Positions 44-5,878 of a DNA stretch of 5,878 nt are shown here, piece by piece. Positions within the stretch are counted from its first letter, which is position 1, and every line of letters begins with the position of its first letter. The notes beneath the pieces are model-generated. The model was not told the DNA's origin. It did not search any database and saw only the letters and a list, made by a program, of their open reading frames with translations. Source of the DNA: a virus (lineage: Duplodnaviria > Heunggongvirae > Uroviricota > Caudoviricetes); the IMG/VR virus record IMGVR_UViG_2531839473_000007; one strand, 5' to 3'. The translations under genes and the position numbers were made by a program.

Positions 44-1930
44 GTGTACGGGGAGATACCGTTTAACCCGAACACCCGTGAGGTGACGACGGCGTGCATC
101 AGCCTGTTCCGCTACCAGGCGCAGGTGCGGCCCTCGCAGGTGCGTTCAAAAGACCACACGTTTAAGGTGCCGGACTGGCCGGGTATTTACATTGAGGATG
201 CTGAAAACCTCAACGGGCAACTGAAGCAGTACAAAATCCTGGACTGGCCGGGGCGCTACAAGGACGAGCAGCATGGTCAGGACTTTACCCGCTACCGGCT
301 GGAAGGGCTGCGTAACAGTGCTGAAACCGCCACAGGTATCAGTAACTCCCCGGCGCTGTGGCCGGGACGGCGGTTCACCCTGACGGGGCATCCGGTACAG
401 GGAGCGAACCCGAACCGTGAGTGGCAGGTGGTGAGCAGCACGCTGACGGGGAGCCAGCCGCAGGCGCTGCACGGCAGTCACGGTGAAGGAACGACGCTGA
501 GTAACCAGTTTGAGGTGATACCGGCAGACAGGACGTGGCGTCACGCGCCGCTGCCGAAGCCGAAGGTGGACGGCCCGCAGAGTGCCATCGTGACCGGGCC
601 GAAGGGCGAGGAGATATTCTGCGACGAACATGGCCGGGTACGGGTGAAGTTTCACTGGGACCGTTATCACGGTATGACGGAGGAGAGTTCATGCTGGATA
701 CGGGTGTCGCAGGCGTGGGCGGGAGCGGGGTTCGGTAATCTGGCGATACCGCGTGTGGGTCAGGAAGTGATAGTGGACTTTCTGAACGGGGACCCGGACC
801 AGCCCATCGTCACGGGACGCACCTACCATGAGGACAACCGTTCACCGGGGGATTTACCGGGCACGAAGACGCAGATGACGATACGGTCGAAGACCTATAA
901 AGGAAGCGGATTTAACGAGCTGCGGTTTGAAGACGCCACGGGCGGTGAGCAGGTGTATATCCATGTGCAGAAGAACATGGACACGGAGGTGCTTCACGAC
1001 CGGACGACGGACGTGAAGCATGACCACACGGAGACCATCGGGAACAACCAGAAAATCACGGTGGGGCTGGGCCAGACGGTGACGGTGGGGAAAGAGAATG
1101 CCGGAGGGCATGACCAGACCATCACGGTGGCCCATGACCGGAGCATCACGGTGCGCAACGACCAGACGCTGAAGGTGACGAACGACCGGCGGGTGAACGT
1201 CAGCCACGATGACGGTCTGTACGTCAGAAACGACCGAAAGGTGACGGTGGAAGGGAAGCAGGAGCACAAAACGACAGGAAACCACATCAGCCTGGTGGAG
1301 GGAAAACACAGCCTGGAGGTGAAAGGCGACCTGGCGAGGAAGATTACCGGCGCGCTGGGAATGAAGGTCCGGGATGAAATCGTACTGGAGAGCGGCGGTA
1401 AAATCACCCTGAAGGTGGGCGGCTCGTTCGTTGTCGTTCATTCTGGTGGCGTGGATATTGCCGGGCCGAAGATAAACCTGAACGGCGGGGGCAGTGCGGG
1501 GACACCGGTGGGGACGATGCAGCCGGGTGTACTGGCGGCGCTGGCGGATGACGGGGGTGATGAAGAAGGCGAAGATGACGGGCAGGGCAATGGCGACTCC
1601 GGTGATGGAGAGGGGGGGGCCGGAGATGATGATAGTGGAAACGATTCGGACAATTCAGATGATGATGAAAAGGAAATTGTTTCTATTAGTTGGTCCTATG
1701 GTAACAATCGGACAAAAGTTCAGGATACATCCAGACACTATGTAGACCTCAATCTCCATGTGCAGACAAAAGGGTATAGTCCTGGGGAAAGTGTGTCCGT
1801 CGAAATAAAATATGATGACTTTGATGGTATGGAAAGATCTCTTGCTGTTAGCGGCACGGTAGATGAATCAGGTGAGATGGTTGTTGAGCAGGTTTTATCT
1901 GGGGCAGACGTCTGTACTTTAGATGAGTAG
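44..1930 (+). CDS. vgrG: T6SS spike protein VgrG (vgrG1), 3' portion with C-terminal extension. The open frame starts at GTG 44 after a TGA at 26-28, but the vgrG reading continues upstream in another frame (apparent 1-bp deletion near nt 30-32), so this is a frameshifted gene or a sequencing error.
   Basis: Translation carries VgrG core motifs (FKVPDWPGIYIEDAENLNGQ, YKDEQHGQDFTRYRLEGLRNSAETATG, FHWDRYHG, gp5-like beta-helix repeats such as VKHDHTETIGNNQKITVGLGQTVTVG). It aligns residue-by-residue with the vgrG2 N-terminal region at 5509-5878. Stop TAG at 1928-1930. Confidence 0.9.
   Translation: MYGEIPFNPNTREVTTACISLFRYQAQVRPSQVRSKDHTFKVPDWPGIYIEDAENLNGQLKQYKILDWPGRYKDEQHGQDFTRYRLEGLRNSAETATGISNSPALWPGRRFTLTGHPVQGANPNREWQVVSSTLTGSQPQALHGSHGEGTTLSNQFEVIPADRTWRHAPLPKPKVDGPQSAIVTGPKGEEIFCDEHGRVRVKFHWDRYHGMTEESSCWIRVSQAWAGAGFGNLAIPRVGQEVIVDFLNGDPDQPIVTGRTYHEDNRSPGDLPGTKTQMTIRSKTYKGSGFNELRFEDATGGEQVYIHVQKNMDTEVLHDRTTDVKHDHTETIGNNQKITVGLGQTVTVGKENAGGHDQTITVAHDRSITVRNDQTLKVTNDRRVNVSHDDGLYVRNDRKVTVEGKQEHKTTGNHISLVEGKHSLEVKGDLARKITGALGMKVRDEIVLESGGKITLKVGGSFVVVHSGGVDIAGPKINLNGGGSAGTPVGTMQPGVLAALADDGGDEEGEDDGQGNGDSGDGEGGAGDDDSGNDSDNSDDDEKEIVSISWSYGNNRTKVQDTSRHYVDLNLHVQTKGYSPGESVSVEIKYDDFDGMERSLAVSGTVDESGEMVVEQVLSGADVCTLDE
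1547..1675 (+). other. Acidic low-complexity linker inside vgrG1 (D/E/G/S/N-rich, about 43 codons) between the VgrG core and the C-terminal domain; contains a G8 homopolymer.
   Basis: Translation ADDGGDEEGEDDGQGNGDSGDGEGGAGDDDSGNDSDNSDDDEK. Nucleotide composition switches from GC-rich to AT-rich within this segment. Confidence 0.8.
1612..1619 (+). repeat. G8 homopolymeric tract inside the vgrG1 coding sequence (codons GAG GGG GGG GCC).
   Basis: Eight consecutive G read directly at 1612-1619. Confidence 0.9.
1676..1927 (+). other. VgrG1 C-terminal extension domain of unknown function (about 84 aa, AT-rich); candidate cargo or adaptor-binding module.
   Basis: Translation KEIVSISWSYGNNRTKVQDTSRHYVDLNLHVQTKGYSPGESVSVEIKYDDFDGMERSLAVSGTVDESGEMVVEQVLSGADVCTLDE follows the gp5-like repeats and acidic linker. 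Its composition matches the downstream AT-rich cassette, not the vgrG core. Confidence 0.5.
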
Positions 1931-2095
1931 TTGTTTGGTAATATATGGCTGATGTTGTTGAATAAGAATTATATGATTAGCTGATCATTTAGATGACAGA
2001 ATACATACTACTATGTTGTATTCACTTAAAGTCTGGCGATTGTTTACATGACAGTTTTACGTGATACTTATTCGTTGAATCAGTAAGGGCTTATT

Positions 2096-2236
2096 ATGGC
2101 AAAAAAAGTTACAGCTAGTGCGGGAAAACAAAAATCGACTGTTAATGTAAAAAGACCTGCATGGTCTGATGTATATGAAGGATATCCAAAAGTTAATGGA
2201 GGTACTGAAATTGAGAGTGATTTGCCTATGAAATAA
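2096..2236 (+). other. N-terminal segment (46 codons) of the tae4-like effector gene, ending at an in-frame TAA (2234-2236) and continuing in the same frame as ORF 2237-2662.
   Basis: ATG at 2096 with Shine-Dalgarno TAAGGG at 2084-2089 (6-nt spacer). Translation MAKKVTASAGKQKSTVNVKRPAWSDVYEGYPKVNGGTEIESDLPMK. Same frame as the downstream catalytic ORF, separated only by TAA. Confidence 0.5.
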
Positions 2237-2662
2237 TTGTTTACATCAATTTTTGGGCCTGATTATGATACTACGCAATTCAATAATGGTTGTGCTACAA
2301 GAGTATCTCTTGGATTACTTTCTGAAGGATTAAAAAGAGTGGGGGAAAGAGATATTGTTATTAGTGAAAAATCTCATATCCATTATGGGAAATCAATAGA
2401 GCCCGGAGCTGCAAGATTAAAAGATTTTCTGATAAAAATATGGGGAAATGCAGATTATGTCATTAAATATCCTCTAAGCTTTGACGATGTAAGCTCGGTA
2501 TTAAATGATAAAAAAGGTGTTTATATAATGGTTTATAAAAGACCTGCGGATCATGGTGGTGCTACGGGACATGCTACACTATGGACTGGTAACAGAGCCA
2601 TTGGCGGTAATGACCATGCTGATTCCAGTGCTTTTGCAATCTATTTTTGGGAATTGAAATAA
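2237..2662 (+). CDS. Tae4-like T6SS peptidoglycan amidase effector (papain-like Cys-His hydrolase), catalytic portion. Likely a pseudogene or disrupted gene, because the natural start and RBS lie upstream at 2096 beyond an in-frame TAA.
   Basis: Motifs NNGCATRVSLGL (candidate catalytic Cys) and GHATLWTGN (candidate catalytic His), followed by GGNDHAD, fit the Tae4-family pattern as recalled. Size and AT-rich composition suit an effector cassette. The only in-frame start before the Cys is TTG at 2237, with no RBS. Confidence 0.55.
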   Translation: MFTSIFGPDYDTTQFNNGCATRVSLGLLSEGLKRVGERDIVISEKSHIHYGKSIEPGAARLKDFLIKIWGNADYVIKYPLSFDDVSSVLNDKKGVYIMVYKRPADHGGATGHATLWTGNRAIGGNDHADSSAFAIYFWELK

Positions 2663-3096
2663 TGAAAGCTATATTTTTTATATTCTGTATTTTTTTTATG
2701 GGAAATTCATTGTTATATTCAGAGGCTAAAGCCAGTGAATCAGAAAGTACTCTGGATGATTATAAAATATTTACACTCGCTAAATGCATTACCAGTAATT
2801 ATGAAAAAATGGGGGTTGATTTTACAAAACTACCATTGAAAGATAACACTATGGGATTTATTGATATTGATGCTGGACTCGCTTTTTATCGAAATAAGGA
2901 TAGTGTTTTAGCATCTTTCATTAATAAAAAAACAGGGGGTTTTTACAGGCCAAAACAAACTAGTGGTGATTTAGCATCTTCAAATATGGTTATATACGAC
3001 TGCGTAAATTTTTATCATTCAAAAGAGTTGGGTGTATTTCTAAAAAAAATCATTCATGAGAGGACTGTCGAAATTGAGAGAAACGCACTCGAATAG
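2662..3096 (+). CDS. Periplasmic immunity protein candidate (Tai4-like by synteny) with an N-terminal signal peptide.
   Basis: ATG at 2662 overlaps the upstream stop (TAATG). Signal peptide MKAIFFIFCIFFMGNSLLYSEAKA, then a hydrophilic mature protein of about 120 aa. Sits immediately downstream of the amidase effector, as in effector-immunity pairs. The ORF-track start (TTG 2647) is less plausible than ATG 2662. Confidence 0.5.
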   Translation: MKAIFFIFCIFFMGNSLLYSEAKASESESTLDDYKIFTLAKCITSNYEKMGVDFTKLPLKDNTMGFIDIDAGLAFYRNKDSVLASFINKKTGGFYRPKQTSGDLASSNMVIYDCVNFYHSKELGVFLKKIIHERTVEIERNALE

Positions 3097-3271
3097 ATAA
3101 TTCTGGCGGTGACTTTGTTTTTTTTGGATGCAATGCAATATATAAAAATTGTATTTGTTCGAAAATAATATAAAATATCCGAGAAAAATATCATTCGCTA
3201 TTAAAGTGTCTAAGCGTTTTTACATAAGTACTTTACATCGTTTAGTTTAAAAACGCGGCTATCAATAAATG

Positions 3272-3288
3272 TCGCAAAGGATTTGCGA
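3272..3288. promoter_or_regulatory. Perfect 7-bp inverted repeat TCGCAAA-gga-TTTGCGA about 45 bp upstream of the PAAR start, in an AT-rich intergenic region; candidate operator or promoter element.
   Basis: Palindrome read directly. TTGCGA within it could serve as a -35-like hexamer, with TATACA about 19 bp downstream. No strong assignment. Confidence 0.25.
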
Positions 3289-3331
3289 TATAATTCAATA
3301 TGTAAATTATACAACACATAAGGAAATTTAT

Positions 3332-3616
3332 ATGCCCACAGCAGCCAGACTCAGCGATAAAGGCACCCAGCATGACGGTTATTATGAGACCGCCATTATT
3401 GCAGGCTCCTCCTCCGTCTTTATTGATGGTATGCCCGCCGCCCGTCAGGGCGATCCGCTGACACCGCATTCCAAACCCGACCATCCCCCTCACCCCCGTA
3501 AAATCGCAGGCGGCTCTGCCACTGTCTTTATTGACGGTAAACCTGCCGCCAGAACCGGCGATGCCATTGACTGTGGCGGCGTGGTTATCGGTGGCGGCAC
3601 GGTAAATATAGGCTGA
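3332..3616 (+). CDS. Stand-alone PAAR-domain protein (T6SS spike-sharpening tip), 94 aa.
   Basis: Three PAAR-type motifs (TAARLSD, PAARQGD, PAARTGD) with G/I-rich beta-strand spacers. Shine-Dalgarno AAGGAAA 6 nt before ATG 3332. Stop TGA at 3614-3616. The ORF-track upstream ATG at 3269 lacks an RBS, and the PAAR domain begins at Met 3332. Confidence 0.9.
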   Translation: MPTAARLSDKGTQHDGYYETAIIAGSSSVFIDGMPAARQGDPLTPHSKPDHPPHPRKIAGGSATVFIDGKPAARTGDAIDCGGVVIGGGTVNIG

Positions 3617-3705
3617 TTAATTATCAGGGAGGCTGTATGCCCTCAGAAGGATTACGTTTCACGCTGTCGGTGGCCGGCATTGTGGAGATGGCGACGGCGG
3701 TGGTC
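3612..3705 (+). repeat. Direct repeat copy 1 (about 94 bp, about 90 percent identical to 4898-4987): TGATTAAT junction, Shine-Dalgarno GGGAGG, and the first 23 codons of vgrG.
   Basis: Alignment by eye: gctgattaat..cagggagg..atgccctcagaaggattacgtttcacgctgtcggtggccggcattgtggagatggcgacggcggtggt versus the vgrG2 5' region. Confidence 0.9.
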
Positions 3706-4398
3706 GTAGAGGACGGCATATTTGGAAAAAATACATACGACGCAGTGAAAATATTTCAGCGGTATAATGGGTTAAATGATGATGGCATCGTAGGGCCACA
3801 AACCTGGCGGAAATTGGGTGTTCCTGAACTTTTAACGCGAAGTTCATCAGGCTCTCCCGCCAGCCCTTCTTCGGGGCCATCCCGGAGCCCTTCTGCTGAT
3901 TCAAATGGTACTGTTGCTGAGACTGGTGATGGATTCTGTTTCCCATTCCCTGCACTTCCTGCGAGATCGTGGACAAACGGCGGTCGTCAATTTGGGGCGT
4001 CACGCAGTGGGGGCCGCAGACATGCCGGTTGTGATTTGATATTCCCCCGAGGAACGCTTATTTATGCTGTTGCTGATGGCATATTAGTTCAGCCCCCATA
4101 TCCATTTTACGAAGGTACTTCTGCTGTAGAAATTAGACATGGCAACCTTCTCCTTCGCTATGGTGAAATTATTAATGGGTCATACGTAGGTGGGCAAACG
4201 GTTCAAAAAGGTCAGGTTATTGCTAAGGTAGGAAGGCTGCATTCGGGTTCATCTATGTTGCATCTGGAGATTTATACGAATGCGACCTTATCGGGTGACC
4301 TTACAGATCGCAACAGAGCGCCTTATCAAAGACGTTCTGATGTGACAGATCCTGCCCCATATCTGGATATCTGGAAAAATAACCTGCCTACCCTCTGA
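3637..4398 (+). CDS. Chimeric putative T6SS effector: vgrG-derived N-terminus (23 aa), then a partial peptidoglycan-binding (PG_binding_1-like) motif, a Ser/Pro-rich linker and an M23/LytM-like peptidase domain.
   Basis: N-terminus MPSEGLRFTLSVAGIVEMATAVV matches the vgrG2 start MSSEGLRFTLSVDGIVEMATAVV. DGIFGKNTYDAVKIFQRYNGLNDDGIVGPQTWRKLG matches the second half of the PG_binding_1 consensus. M23-like blocks: HAGCD (HxxxD), GTLIYAVADGILV, VEIRHGNLLLRYGEI, GQTVQKGQVIAKVG, SMLHLEIY, VTDPAPYL. Shine-Dalgarno GGGAGG precedes ATG 3637. Confidence 0.75.
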   Translation: MPSEGLRFTLSVAGIVEMATAVVVEDGIFGKNTYDAVKIFQRYNGLNDDGIVGPQTWRKLGVPELLTRSSSGSPASPSSGPSRSPSADSNGTVAETGDGFCFPFPALPARSWTNGGRQFGASRSGGRRHAGCDLIFPRGTLIYAVADGILVQPPYPFYEGTSAVEIRHGNLLLRYGEIINGSYVGGQTVQKGQVIAKVGRLHSGSSMLHLEIYTNATLSGDLTDRNRAPYQRRSDVTDPAPYLDIWKNNLPTL

Positions 4399-4417: not shown

Positions 4418-4882
4418 ATGTTCAAAAAGATAATACTATTTTTAACGGTGATATCTTCGAGTTTTGTTGTTTGTCTTGCGGCTGATTCAGAAAAGATATT
4501 ATCAGTAGATCCTGTTGTGAATAATTTTGGCGTTGATGAAGTCGTAGGGTTGCCTCATCCTGTTTGTACTTTGAGTCTGGCTGAAAATAATGAGAAACAT
4601 CTTTATAATTATGTTGAGGGCGGTATCTGCCCTGTGGGCGGTGAAAGTTGTCCTTATTCAGCCGTCATAAAACTGAATGGCAAGATGGCGATATTAAAAC
4701 AGATATCGACAAATAAAAATATCAGTTTTTTTAAGAATGATGAGGTATCGATTATCACAACACAAAGCCCAGTTAAAGGAGCTGTGGTGGATGAAGAGGG
4801 TGGTGATGTGAATGCCGTTATTGTAATCAAAACAAAAAATAGCGAAATAAAACTTAATATGTCCGGGTACTGTGGTATTTAA
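4418..4882 (+). CDS. Putative periplasmic immunity protein for the M23-like effector (secreted, Cys-containing, no family recognised).
   Basis: Signal peptide MFKKIILFLTVISSSFVVCLA followed by ADSEK. Four Cys in the mature part (C50, C71, C78, C152). Shine-Dalgarno AAGGA 9 nt before ATG 4418. AT-rich. Immediately downstream of the effector. Confidence 0.5.
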   Translation: MFKKIILFLTVISSSFVVCLAADSEKILSVDPVVNNFGVDEVVGLPHPVCTLSLAENNEKHLYNYVEGGICPVGGESCPYSAVIKLNGKMAILKQISTNKNISFFKNDEVSIITTQSPVKGAVVDEEGGDVNAVIVIKTKNSEIKLNMSGYCGI

Positions 4883-4897
4883 AACCGGGCTATTATC

Positions 4898-4987
4898 GCT
4901 GATTAATCAAGGGAGGTCATATGTCCTCAGAAGGATTACGTTTCACGCTGTCGGTGGACGGTATTGTGGAGATGGCGACGGCAGTGG
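4898..4987 (+). repeat. Direct repeat copy 2: the authentic vgrG2 translation-initiation region and first 23 codons.
   Basis: Same alignment as copy 1; gctgattaat at 4898-4907, GGGAGG at 4911-4916, ATG at 4921. Confidence 0.9.
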
Positions 4988-5878
4988 TGAGCTTCCGTCT
5001 GTACCAGCACCACTGCACACCGTTCATCCTGGATGTGGATATCGCCAGCGGACTGTCTGACCTGACGGCGGAGGATTTTCTGGAGAAAAGCGCGGTGCTG
5101 ACGGTCTGGCAGGGCGACACTGCACAGCGTTACGTCAGCGGTATCGTGACGGAGGTGCAGCTCGGTGAGAACAACGACTGGCAGATGCGTTATTCCCTGA
5201 GCATCAGCCCGCCGCTGTGGCGGGCAGGGTTACGGCAGAACTTCCGTATCTTCCAGCAGCAGGACATCGGGACGATATCAGCACAGCTTCTTGAAGAGAA
5301 CGGGGTGACGGCGTGGATGCCGCTGTTCTATGAGGCGCACCCGGCGCGGGAGTTCTGCGTGCAGTACGGGGAGAGCGACCTGGCGTTCCTGACCCGGCTG
5401 TGGGCGGAGGAAGGTATCTTCTTTTATGAGCGCTGCAGTCAGGAAGGGCCGGAACAGAAGCTGGCGGTGTGTGATGACGTGGCGGGGCTGACGGGAATGG
5501 GGGCGCTGGCGTTTAACCCGGACACGACGACCGGGGGAACGACGGAGTACATCAGCGAGTTTCGTTACCGTGCGCAGATAAGCGTGGCGTCGGTGGAGAC
5601 GCAGGATTATACGTTCAAAACGCCGGGGTGGCCGGGGTACTACAGCCATGCCGGGGAGAGCCTGAACGGGCAGGGAACGCAGTACGAGATATTTGATTAT
5701 CCGGGGCGTTTCAAGGATGAGCAGCACGGCCAGGACTTTGCGCGTTACCAGACGGAAGGGTGGCGGAACGGGGCGGAGACGGCGAGCGGGGTGTGTAACA
5801 CGGCGCGACTGTGGCCGGGAACGCGGTTCCGGCTGACGGGCCATCCCTCAGGGACGCTGAACCGGGAATGGCAGGTTG
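4921..5878 (+). CDS. vgrG: T6SS spike protein VgrG (vgrG2), N-terminal about 319 codons; 3' end beyond the window.
   Basis: Open frame from ATG 4921 to the window end with no stop (translated by hand). Begins MSSEGLRFTLSVDGIVEMATAVVSFRLYQ and continues with VgrG core motifs (TFKTPGWPGYY, FKDEQHGQDFARYQTEGWRNGAETASG). Strong Shine-Dalgarno AAGGGAGG. Confidence 0.92.
   Translation, partial: MSSEGLRFTLSVDGIVEMATAVVSFRLYQHHCTPFILDVDIASGLSDLTAEDFLEKSAVLTVWQGDTAQRYVSGIVTEVQLGENNDWQMRYSLSISPPLWRAGLRQNFRIFQQQDIGTISAQLLEENGVTAWMPLFYEAHPAREFCVQYGESDLAFLTRLWAEEGIFFYERCSQEGPEQKLAVCDDVAGLTGMGALAFNPDTTTGGTTEYISEFRYRAQISVASVETQDYTFKTPGWPGYYSHAGESLNGQGTQYEIFDYPGRFKDEQHGQDFARYQTEGWRNGAETASGVCNTARLWPGTRFRLTGHPSGTLNREWQV

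Follow-up and report, generated by a model that had tools for sequence, protein, structure and literature searches.

A nonsense codon interrupts a vgrG-linked Tae4 amidase effector gene in Escherichia coli and leaves the adjacent immunity reading frame intact

Introduction

Can a Tae4-type amidase effector gene of Escherichia coli that carries an in-frame stop codon still arm the cell, or has the weapon been lost while the shield next to it was kept? The question is raised by positions 2096-2662 of a 5,878-bp E. coli draft contig (GCA_000190955.1, GL872061.1), the whole of which we analyzed and refer to as the window; it lies between two vgrG genes in a type VI secretion system (T6SS) effector island. 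We conclude, with a probability of roughly 0.85, that this segment is a nonsense pseudogene of a vgrG-linked Tae4 amidase effector belonging to E. coli T6SS-1 (aspV island), with its immunity gene intact.

Decay of an effector that leaves the immunity gene in place is well documented for the T6SS (PMC5361080, PMC7400221, 10.1101/471110). When the literature was searched for an E. coli Tae4 allele with a nonsense codon, nothing specific came up, and no account of this allele was found; a paper on Salmonella ST-99 concerns a deletion of the whole tae4-tai4-hcp2 segment rather than a nonsense allele.

The effector frame and its in-frame stop codon

The effector-immunity pair comprises the following features:

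2084..2089, + strand: Shine-Dalgarno-like TAAGGG with a 6-nucleotide spacer to the ATG at 2096 (direct reading; identical in the intact E. coli loci L014 and L015)
2096..2233, + strand: effector codons 1-46, encoding a beta-hairpin and the conserved helix motif RPAWSDVYEGYPK (translation; a 46-residue hypothetical protein in the Prokaryotic Genome Annotation Pipeline, PGAP)
2234..2236, + strand: premature ochre TAA that arose from GAA (Glu47) through G-to-T at 2234 (comparison with L014, L015, and the protein P0044)
2237..2662, + strand: effector codons 48-188 and stop, including Cys66 (2291-2293) and His159 (2570-2572) (Pfam Tae4, alignment to Ssp1, PGAP)
2662..3096, + strand: putative cognate immunity gene, 144 residues, with signal peptide, distantly Tai4-like (family alignment and gene order; its ATG overlaps the effector stop as TAATG)
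2690..2697, + strand: T8 run within the region coding for the immunity signal peptide, T7 in L004 and L005 (comparison of carriers)

By direct reading and translation, the effector frame opens at ATG 2096-2098 and runs for 46 sense codons up to AAA TAA TTG at 2231-2239. Beyond the TAA at 2234-2236 the same frame remains open until a second TAA at 2660-2662, and both catalytic residues, Cys66 (TGT, in the motif NNGCATR) and His159 (CAT, in GHATLW), are encoded 3' of the premature stop. The downstream frame has a TTG at 2237, 18 codons 5' of the catalytic cysteine, and a search for a Shine-Dalgarno-like sequence 5-10 nucleotides upstream of this TTG (CCTATGAAATAA) found none. The initial annotation had read the locus in the same way, from a good ribosome-binding site and a 46-codon opening segment, through a frame that continues across both catalytic motifs to 2660, to a downstream open reading frame (ORF) that offers only a TTG without a ribosome-binding site, and each of these points holds on re-reading. 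PGAP and RefSeq split the frame into a 46-residue hypothetical protein and, from TTG 2237 onward, a 141-residue "T6SS effector amidase Tae4 family protein".

Read-through or recoding of the stop codon was considered and rejected: no recoding signal was found, and an Rfam scan of the window returned no matches. The stop stands here as UAA followed by U, which would count as a strong terminator among E. coli termination contexts.

A single substitution carried by one young haplotype

The DNA of intact E. coli alleles (L014 and L015), which we reached through their immunity proteins (P0052 and P0057), reads AAA GAA TTG where the window reads AAA TAA TTG. Because of this correspondence, the lesion is a single G-to-T transversion at 2234 that converted Glu47 (GAA) into an ochre codon (TAA), with TAA as the derived state; the ancestral codon, which the initial annotation had proposed to look for, is GAA. 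At the protein level, the 188-residue P0044 from Escherichia sp. TW15838 equals the read-through translation of the window except for Glu47, the intact E. coli alleles P0042 and P0046 carry Lys-Glu at residues 46-47, and the intact P0001 from Escherichia sp. E4385 carries Thr-Asp. Since codon 47 is TAA here and GAA in the intact alleles, the locus is a pseudogene of a Tae4 family member and not a working member.

One alternative takes the TAA for an artefact of assembly or sequencing, in which case the real gene would be intact. The window is indeed a short draft contig, with a likely error near its 5' end (a G missing at about position 31). However, the TAA is present in the complete genome NZ_CP169399.1 and in at least nine further assemblies from different projects and years, the 46-residue product occurs on 68 contigs and the 141-residue product on 60 (the latter in 91 blocks of the index), and a substitution is atypical of homopolymer errors. 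We rejected error as the source of the TAA on the strength of these independent assemblies, and put the chance of an artefact close to nil. In their number they stood in for read support and confirmed the stop codon, so that the reservation about a sequencing error expressed at the outset does not apply.

Compared with the window, ten assemblies including the complete genome show 0-4 substitutions over the shared 5.1-5.9 kb (at least 99.9% identity), and their effector-immunity region is 100% or 99.9% identical. The TAA carriers are one young haplotype sampled many times. Among the sequences found, this nonsense haplotype is seen in E. coli about 10 times as often as intact alleles, which occur in a minority of E. 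coli and in cryptic-clade Escherichia. Relative to the locus L002, the effector's ratio of nonsynonymous to synonymous substitution rates (dN/dS) is ~0.11, and that of the immunity gene is 0.25. Both values reflect selection before the lesion; that of the effector points to purifying selection in the past and fits recent inactivation of a formerly functional gene.

The differences from L002 are unevenly distributed, with 13 of the 19 in the effector falling within 86 bp (window 2173-2258) just upstream of and around the stop, and synonymous divergence is 0.25 upstream of the stop and 0.04 downstream. Across 2173-2258, L014 and L015 are identical to the window except at 2234. This pattern of substitutions suggests a small recombination tract in the E4385 lineage.

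The segment lost to the stop codon is a conserved part of the enzyme

Pfam Tae4 (PF14113) matches the read-through translation over residues 62-185 at 50.9-52 bits, against a gathering cut-off of 27, and covers profile positions 1-125 of 125; an NCBIfam search matched no model to the effector or to either immunity protein of the window. We aligned 30 full-length homologues of 181-230 residues, with longer multi-domain relatives extending to 325. Cys66 and His159 are invariant in all 30 and align to Cys50 and His133 of Serratia marcescens Ssp1, which have been named as its catalytic residues (PMC3852654). The acidic third residue that orients the histidine is Asp137 in StTae4 and Asp135 in Ssp1, whereas the matching position of the window frame is Thr161 (HAT versus HID). 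Asp173 and Asp176 lie farther downstream, in columns that are not conserved.

The set of homologues spans Enterobacteriaceae to Flavobacterium and Elizabethkingia, and throughout it eight residues encoded before the stop are invariant (R20, P21, W23, V26, Y27, G29, Y30, and K32). Judged from this alignment, the segment before the stop is one of the best-conserved parts of the Tae4-family protein.

Modeled with AlphaFold2, P0001 (an intact allele, 97% identical) has a mean predicted local distance difference test score (pLDDT) of 92.5 and displays predicted hairpin strands at residues 4-9 and 12-17, helices at 23-29 and 45-53, and the cysteine-bearing helix at 66-76; pLDDT values in the N-terminal block range from 78 to 97. 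The stop at codon 47 falls near the beginning of the predicted helix 45-53, within it. The 11 best PDB matches of this model are all Tae4 or Ssp1 structures (including Agrobacterium, Enterobacter, and Salmonella Tae4), with E values from 5e-9 to 5e-6 and template modeling (TM) scores of 0.67-0.79 on target length, and the RPAW... motif aligns with the RPAF... N terminus of Enterobacter Tae4. Every residue of Ssp1 from 1 to 163 is ordered, and its N-terminal subdomain, in which Cys50 lies, spans residues 1-95 (PMC3852654). By this comparison, a product starting at 2237 would be without the equivalent of approximately the first 30 residues of that subdomain. Alignment and model together place the upstream 46 codons within the enzyme, as the initial annotation had suggested checking, and point to them as a conserved, structured part of it.

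Short and damaged homologues

Apart from two short matches, the homologues range from 181 to 325 residues in length, and the N-terminal region is present in all of them. The first short match, P0009 (144 residues, Salmonella enterica serovar Ceyco), starts near the equivalent of 2237, and a 52-residue N-terminal ORF overlaps it in another frame. Inspection of the DNA reveals the cause, one extra T in a T-run (ATTGTTTTTTACC, compared with ATTGTTTTTACT in an intact relative), which produces a +1 frameshift and splits the gene into 52 and 144 residues. This Ceyco homologue (L018 1865-2420, and L019) is 55% identical, its break falls at almost the same protein position as the E. coli nonsense codon, and it is an independent inactivation. 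The second, P0011 (117 residues), is without the catalytic cysteine and looks like a fragment from its sequence. We therefore rejected a natural short isoform starting near 2237, P0009 being frameshifted, P0011 lacking the cysteine, and 30 of 30 full-length homologues keeping the N terminus.

Further damaged forms belong to the same 90% cluster as the window protein. P0049 has the TAA and a later frameshift, and the copy P0047 of Escherichia sp. E4385 is frameshifted as well; P0043 shows a substitution as added damage in a TAA carrier. P0040, present on seven E. coli contigs, has 144 residues, starts MKELFTS, is called from Met45, and retains Glu47, a combination that suggests another, independent N-terminal lesion. 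At L016 (E. coli GCA_016687215.1, 3635-5249), a DDE transposase gene stands in place of the Tae4 gene except for its last 32 codons, and the immunity gene has at least two frame breaks, so that in this other E. coli lineage the decay extends to the entire module. Given these frameshifted, TAA-bearing, and insertion sequence–replaced copies, effector loss is recurrent in this family.

The adjacent immunity gene

The ORF at 2662-3096 is intact, encodes 144 residues as in loci with an intact effector, differs from L002 by four amino acids, and is also intact in 8 of the 10 carriers examined. Its N terminus, MKAIFFIFCIFFMGNSLLYSEAKA, has a hydrophobic core and an A-x-A-type end and, read by eye, is a predicted periplasmic signal peptide. 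Two cysteines, C42 and C114, are invariant in 15 immunity homologues. A disulfide between Cys48 and Cys108 of StTai4 ties its N- and C-terminal helices, and the pair is conserved in Tai4 and Rap proteins (PMC3695027); from their placement in the alignment, C42 and C114 are comparable to this pair. Pfam Tai4 (PF16695) is matched by 11 of the 15 homologues, the best at E 8.6e-5. A profile of the family alignment retrieves Rap2a from the PDB weakly, at E 0.056, and the six best Foldseek matches of the predicted immunity structure are to Rap2a, Rap1b, and Tai4, again weakly (E 0.47-2.2, TM 0.41-0.54).

Gene order is conserved. The TAATG overlap between the effector stop and the immunity ATG in the window recurs in Citrobacter, where the same vgrG, 186-residue Tae4, and 141-residue partner follow one another, and the effector-immunity pair is also found in E4385 and in the E. 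coli loci with an intact effector. In Kalamiella, the effector and immunity matches both have a longest contig of 896,511 bp, which suggests that they lie on one contig. ORF 2662-3096 is thus best described as a putative cognate immunity protein of a distant Tai4 type, for which the gene order is solid and the family membership partly demonstrated.

Salmonella (L022-L024 at ~3400-6600, for example serovar Magwa) has a homologue with 64% identity to this immunity protein, which lies among small unannotated ORFs and a CdiI gene and belongs to a protein cluster of 480 member sequences. No Tae4 remnant was found within 4 kb of this homologue, and the arrangement resembles an islet of orphan immunity genes. 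The immunity family hence also occurs as a true orphan.

Weighing loss of the toxin against other readings

Under the pseudogene reading, translation from ATG 2096, the only good start, would end after 46 residues, and the resulting peptide, made up of the N-terminal beta-hairpin and the RPxWxxVYxGYPK helix, would contain neither Cys66 nor His159. The remaining frame, with only a TTG and no ribosome-binding site, would be translated barely or not at all, and any 141-residue product would be missing a portion of the N-terminal subdomain to which the catalytic cysteine belongs. We infer from this that no active, deliverable amidase is made. The full-length immunity protein, if expressed, would still neutralize an intact toxin, and the strain would be short of one weapon and plausibly still resistant to that toxin.

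The initial annotation had proposed toxin inactivation with immunity retained, and its core stands, given the change from GAA to TAA, the conservation of the lost segment, and the whole immunity ORF. In its phrase "protected but unarmed", the word "unarmed" applies to this one toxin and is too strong for the cell. In NZ_CP169399.1, the T6SS-1 core (tssA, B, C, E, F, G, H, J, K, M, DotU, and hcp) is annotated with no pseudogene flags, as are a Tle1-like phospholipase and an M23 endopeptidase effector in the same island. Likewise, "immunity retained" holds for the intact 144-residue ORF and does not reach beyond it to selection or expression.

Several observations weigh against our reading. On the effector side, TTG 2237 directly abuts the TAA, so some termination-reinitiation is conceivable; the downstream 141 codons have no further lesion in most carriers, which the youth of the haplotype explains equally well; and PGAP accepts the 141-residue ORF as a valid protein. 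On the immunity side, the window protein has no match to Pfam Tai4 at E <= 1, and its structural model, mostly helical with a pLDDT of 72.9, gives weak fold matches (E 0.5-7). Expression of the immunity gene may also be lowered by lost coupling or polarity. Through the TAATG overlap, its start is translationally coupled to the effector frame, most of which now goes untranslated, with 425 untranslated bases after the stop; ahead of its ATG there is a weak GGGA 9 nucleotides upstream, and a promoter scan of 1900-3400 returned 10 promoter-like sites where 8.3 were expected, a chance level that argues neither for nor against an internal promoter of the immunity gene, along with three weak, uninterpretable terminator-like hairpins. 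Two loci of the TAA haplotype, L004 and L005, have T7 rather than T8 at 2690-2697 and are frameshifted, the called product being 132 residues from Met13, with the first 12 signal-peptide residues gone and no hydrophobic core; this is either a true slip or a homopolymer sequencing error. Both genes are lost at L016, and retention of the immunity gene may simply reflect lack of time.

The effector-side points lead to the suggestion that the locus encodes a reduced functional form, either a 141-residue amidase reinitiated at TTG 2237 or a two-piece enzyme of 46 and 141 residues. To the adjacency of stop and start, the undamaged downstream frame, and the PGAP label can be added that the catalytic residues and the Pfam domain are encoded entirely 3' of the stop. 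On the other hand, TTG is a weak start with no Shine-Dalgarno sequence at the proper distance, the fragment would lack the eight invariant residues and helix 23-29 and would begin within helix 45-53, and no intact homologue starts there. Some carriers have taken on extra damage (the P0049 frameshift and the P0043 substitution), and the near-identity of carriers reflects a young haplotype rather than constraint. We regard a reduced functional form as very unlikely.

The immunity-side points bear on a different proposal, that the whole effector-immunity module is in neutral decay and the immunity gene is intact for want of time, with no selected benefit. With 0-4 substitutions per carrier, selection could not yet show; purifying selection on the immunity gene is not visible because the haplotype is too young. 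The immunity frame is broken in L004 and L005, L016 has both effector and immunity gene broken, the M23 gene, which is the haplotype's second effector, is rearranged too, the island contains IS2, IS21, and a group II intron, and the TAATG overlap implies that the stop ends translational coupling and that polarity could cut immunity expression. Set against this are the whole immunity ORF in most carriers, the existence of intact toxin alleles in E. coli and the cryptic Escherichia clades, which makes a benefit plausible, the orphan homologue kept in the Salmonella immunity-like array, and the protective role of orphan T6SS immunity genes documented in other systems (for example PMC5361080 and PMC10539506). 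Neutral decay of the whole module is a possibility that we take seriously but hold at less than even odds, and the choice between it and selected retention leaves the pseudogene identification unchanged.

Conversely, selection instead of neutral decay could lie behind the TAA allele, as a "disarmed but immune" variant, a reading that we consider unlikely. Its carriers may have spread by avoiding the cost or self-harm of the amidase while still resisting kin that fire it. The adjacency of TAA and TTG might have been kept since reinitiation holds ribosomes on the message; if so, reinitiation would sustain coupled translation of the immunity gene or yield a trace of truncated enzyme.

The surrounding T6SS island

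The remaining features of the window are:

44..1930, + strand: 3' part of a vgrG (tssI) spike gene, presumed to carry the effector encoded downstream (Pfam Phage_GPD, Phage_base_V, and Gp5_trimer_C; carrier role proposed from gene order)
3332..3616, + strand: PAAR spike-tip gene, start of the next module (Pfam PAAR_motif, 74 bits)
3637..4398, + strand: second effector, an M23 peptidoglycan endopeptidase whose first 23 codons come from a vgrG 5' end, with PG_binding_1 truncated (Pfam, comparison with L002)
4418..4882, + strand: 154-residue secreted-type protein, presumed immunity protein for the M23 effector (position and hydrophobic N terminus)
4921..5878, + strand: 5' part of the next vgrG (called gene with Phage_GPD in the window contig, L011; annotated tssI in NZ_CP169399.1)

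The first vgrG has a counterpart of 820 residues in NZ_CP169399.1, also annotated tssI. Its C terminus (window 1545-1927) consists of an acidic linker rich in Gly, Asp, Glu, and Ser, followed by an extension of ~85 residues (EIVSISWSYGNNRTKVQD...CTLDE). A Pfam search with the residues encoded by 1601-1927 returned no match, and this C-terminal domain may be an effector-docking module for the Tae4 protein. Near the contig end, the G absent at about position 31 is present in six of the six other carriers covering the site and its absence puts the first 43 bases of the vgrG out of frame; this is probably an assembly error. In L013, an extra G in a G8 run at ~1611 splits the vgrG.

Pfam and NCBIfam searches returned no matches for the 154-residue protein at 4418-4882. 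The M23 gene is a fusion, common to all TAA carriers: relative to L002 (3482-4688) it has a 444-bp deletion with its junction at window 3704, which joins the opening 23 codons of a vgrG remnant (MPSEGLRFTLSVAGIVEMATAVV), in frame, to approximately codon 31 of the M23 gene. PG_binding_1 is cut by this fusion and retains profile positions 22-57 of 57, compared with 2-57 in L002. Two 89%-identical copies of the sequence just upstream of and including a vgrG start (ribosome-binding site and first codons) occupy window 3612-3704 and 4898-4988, and homology ends at window 3704 in three of three comparisons (L002, L014, and L016). These shared breaks suggest that vgrG 5' ends are a recombination hot spot.

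The region is present in 1 of 5,426 complete E. coli genomes, NZ_CP169399.1, in a T6SS-1 cluster adjoining tRNA-Asp. The island there (L001, 4108505-4133755) is a mosaic in partial decay. Besides three vgrG genes it contains a vgrG remnant, two PAAR genes, IS2, an IS21 that truncates the third vgrG, and a group II intron, and the Tle1-like phospholipase is accompanied by three DUF3304 genes.

Discussion

The locus is closest in kind to the Tae4-Tai4 pairs of Salmonella Typhimurium and Enterobacter cloacae (PDB: 4HFF, 4HFK, 4HFL, 4J30, 4J32, and 4JUR), with which it shares the NlpC/P60 papain-like amidase fold (Foldseek E ~1e-7 to 5e-6 and TM 0.67-0.79 for the P0001 model against these Tae4 structures), the catalytic cysteine and histidine, the N-terminal RPxF/W helix motif, and, encoded downstream, a periplasmic immunity protein that has a signal peptide and two conserved, paired cysteines (PMC3695027). 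It differs from them in that identity is only ~20%, the window subfamily is ~25 residues longer with its predicted N-terminal hairpin at 4-17, the effector directly follows a vgrG with a C-terminal extension, the immunity protein is too divergent for the Pfam Tai4 model, and the effector is broken by a nonsense codon. Among solved structures, the best match in both sequence (E 2.8e-5) and fold (E 5.2e-9) is Ssp1 of the S. marcescens Ssp1-Rap1a/Ssp2-Rap2a systems (PDB: 4BI3, 4BI8, 3ZIB, and 4AX2), and Rap2a is the best, though weak, match to the immunity protein. In contrast to the window gene, the Serratia genes are intact; identity to Ssp1 is 22%, and its triad reads HID where the window has HAT.

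An immunity gene without a working cognate toxin is also the hallmark of the orphan immunity systems, such as the immunity arrays of V. cholerae, the acquired interbacterial defense (AID) systems of Bacteroidales, and the Salmonella Typhi islet. Here, however, the toxin gene is almost whole, one base from intact, and within its native vgrG module. The window locus is the earliest stage of orphaning and not an acquired or displaced immunity array.

Taken together, this is a known effector family and a fairly ordinary instance of one toxin being lost while its immunity ORF stays, and current understanding of T6SS biology is unchanged by it. From the RefSeq/PGAP annotation as 46- and 141-residue proteins, however, inventories of E. 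coli effectors would count a dead toxin as live, and the evidence supports annotating 2096-2662 as one pseudogene (Glu47 to ochre). In addition, the locus puts on record a Tae4 subfamily that is longer, linked to vgrG, and provided with an N-terminal hairpin, and whose divergent Tai4-like partner is largely missed by current Pfam and NCBIfam models. For the biology of these pairs, it is a clean example, a single base old, of how an effector-immunity pair begins to turn into an orphan immunity gene, and because near-identical intact and broken alleles exist in nature, an isogenic test of the costs and benefits of holding toxin plus antidote versus antidote only is possible.

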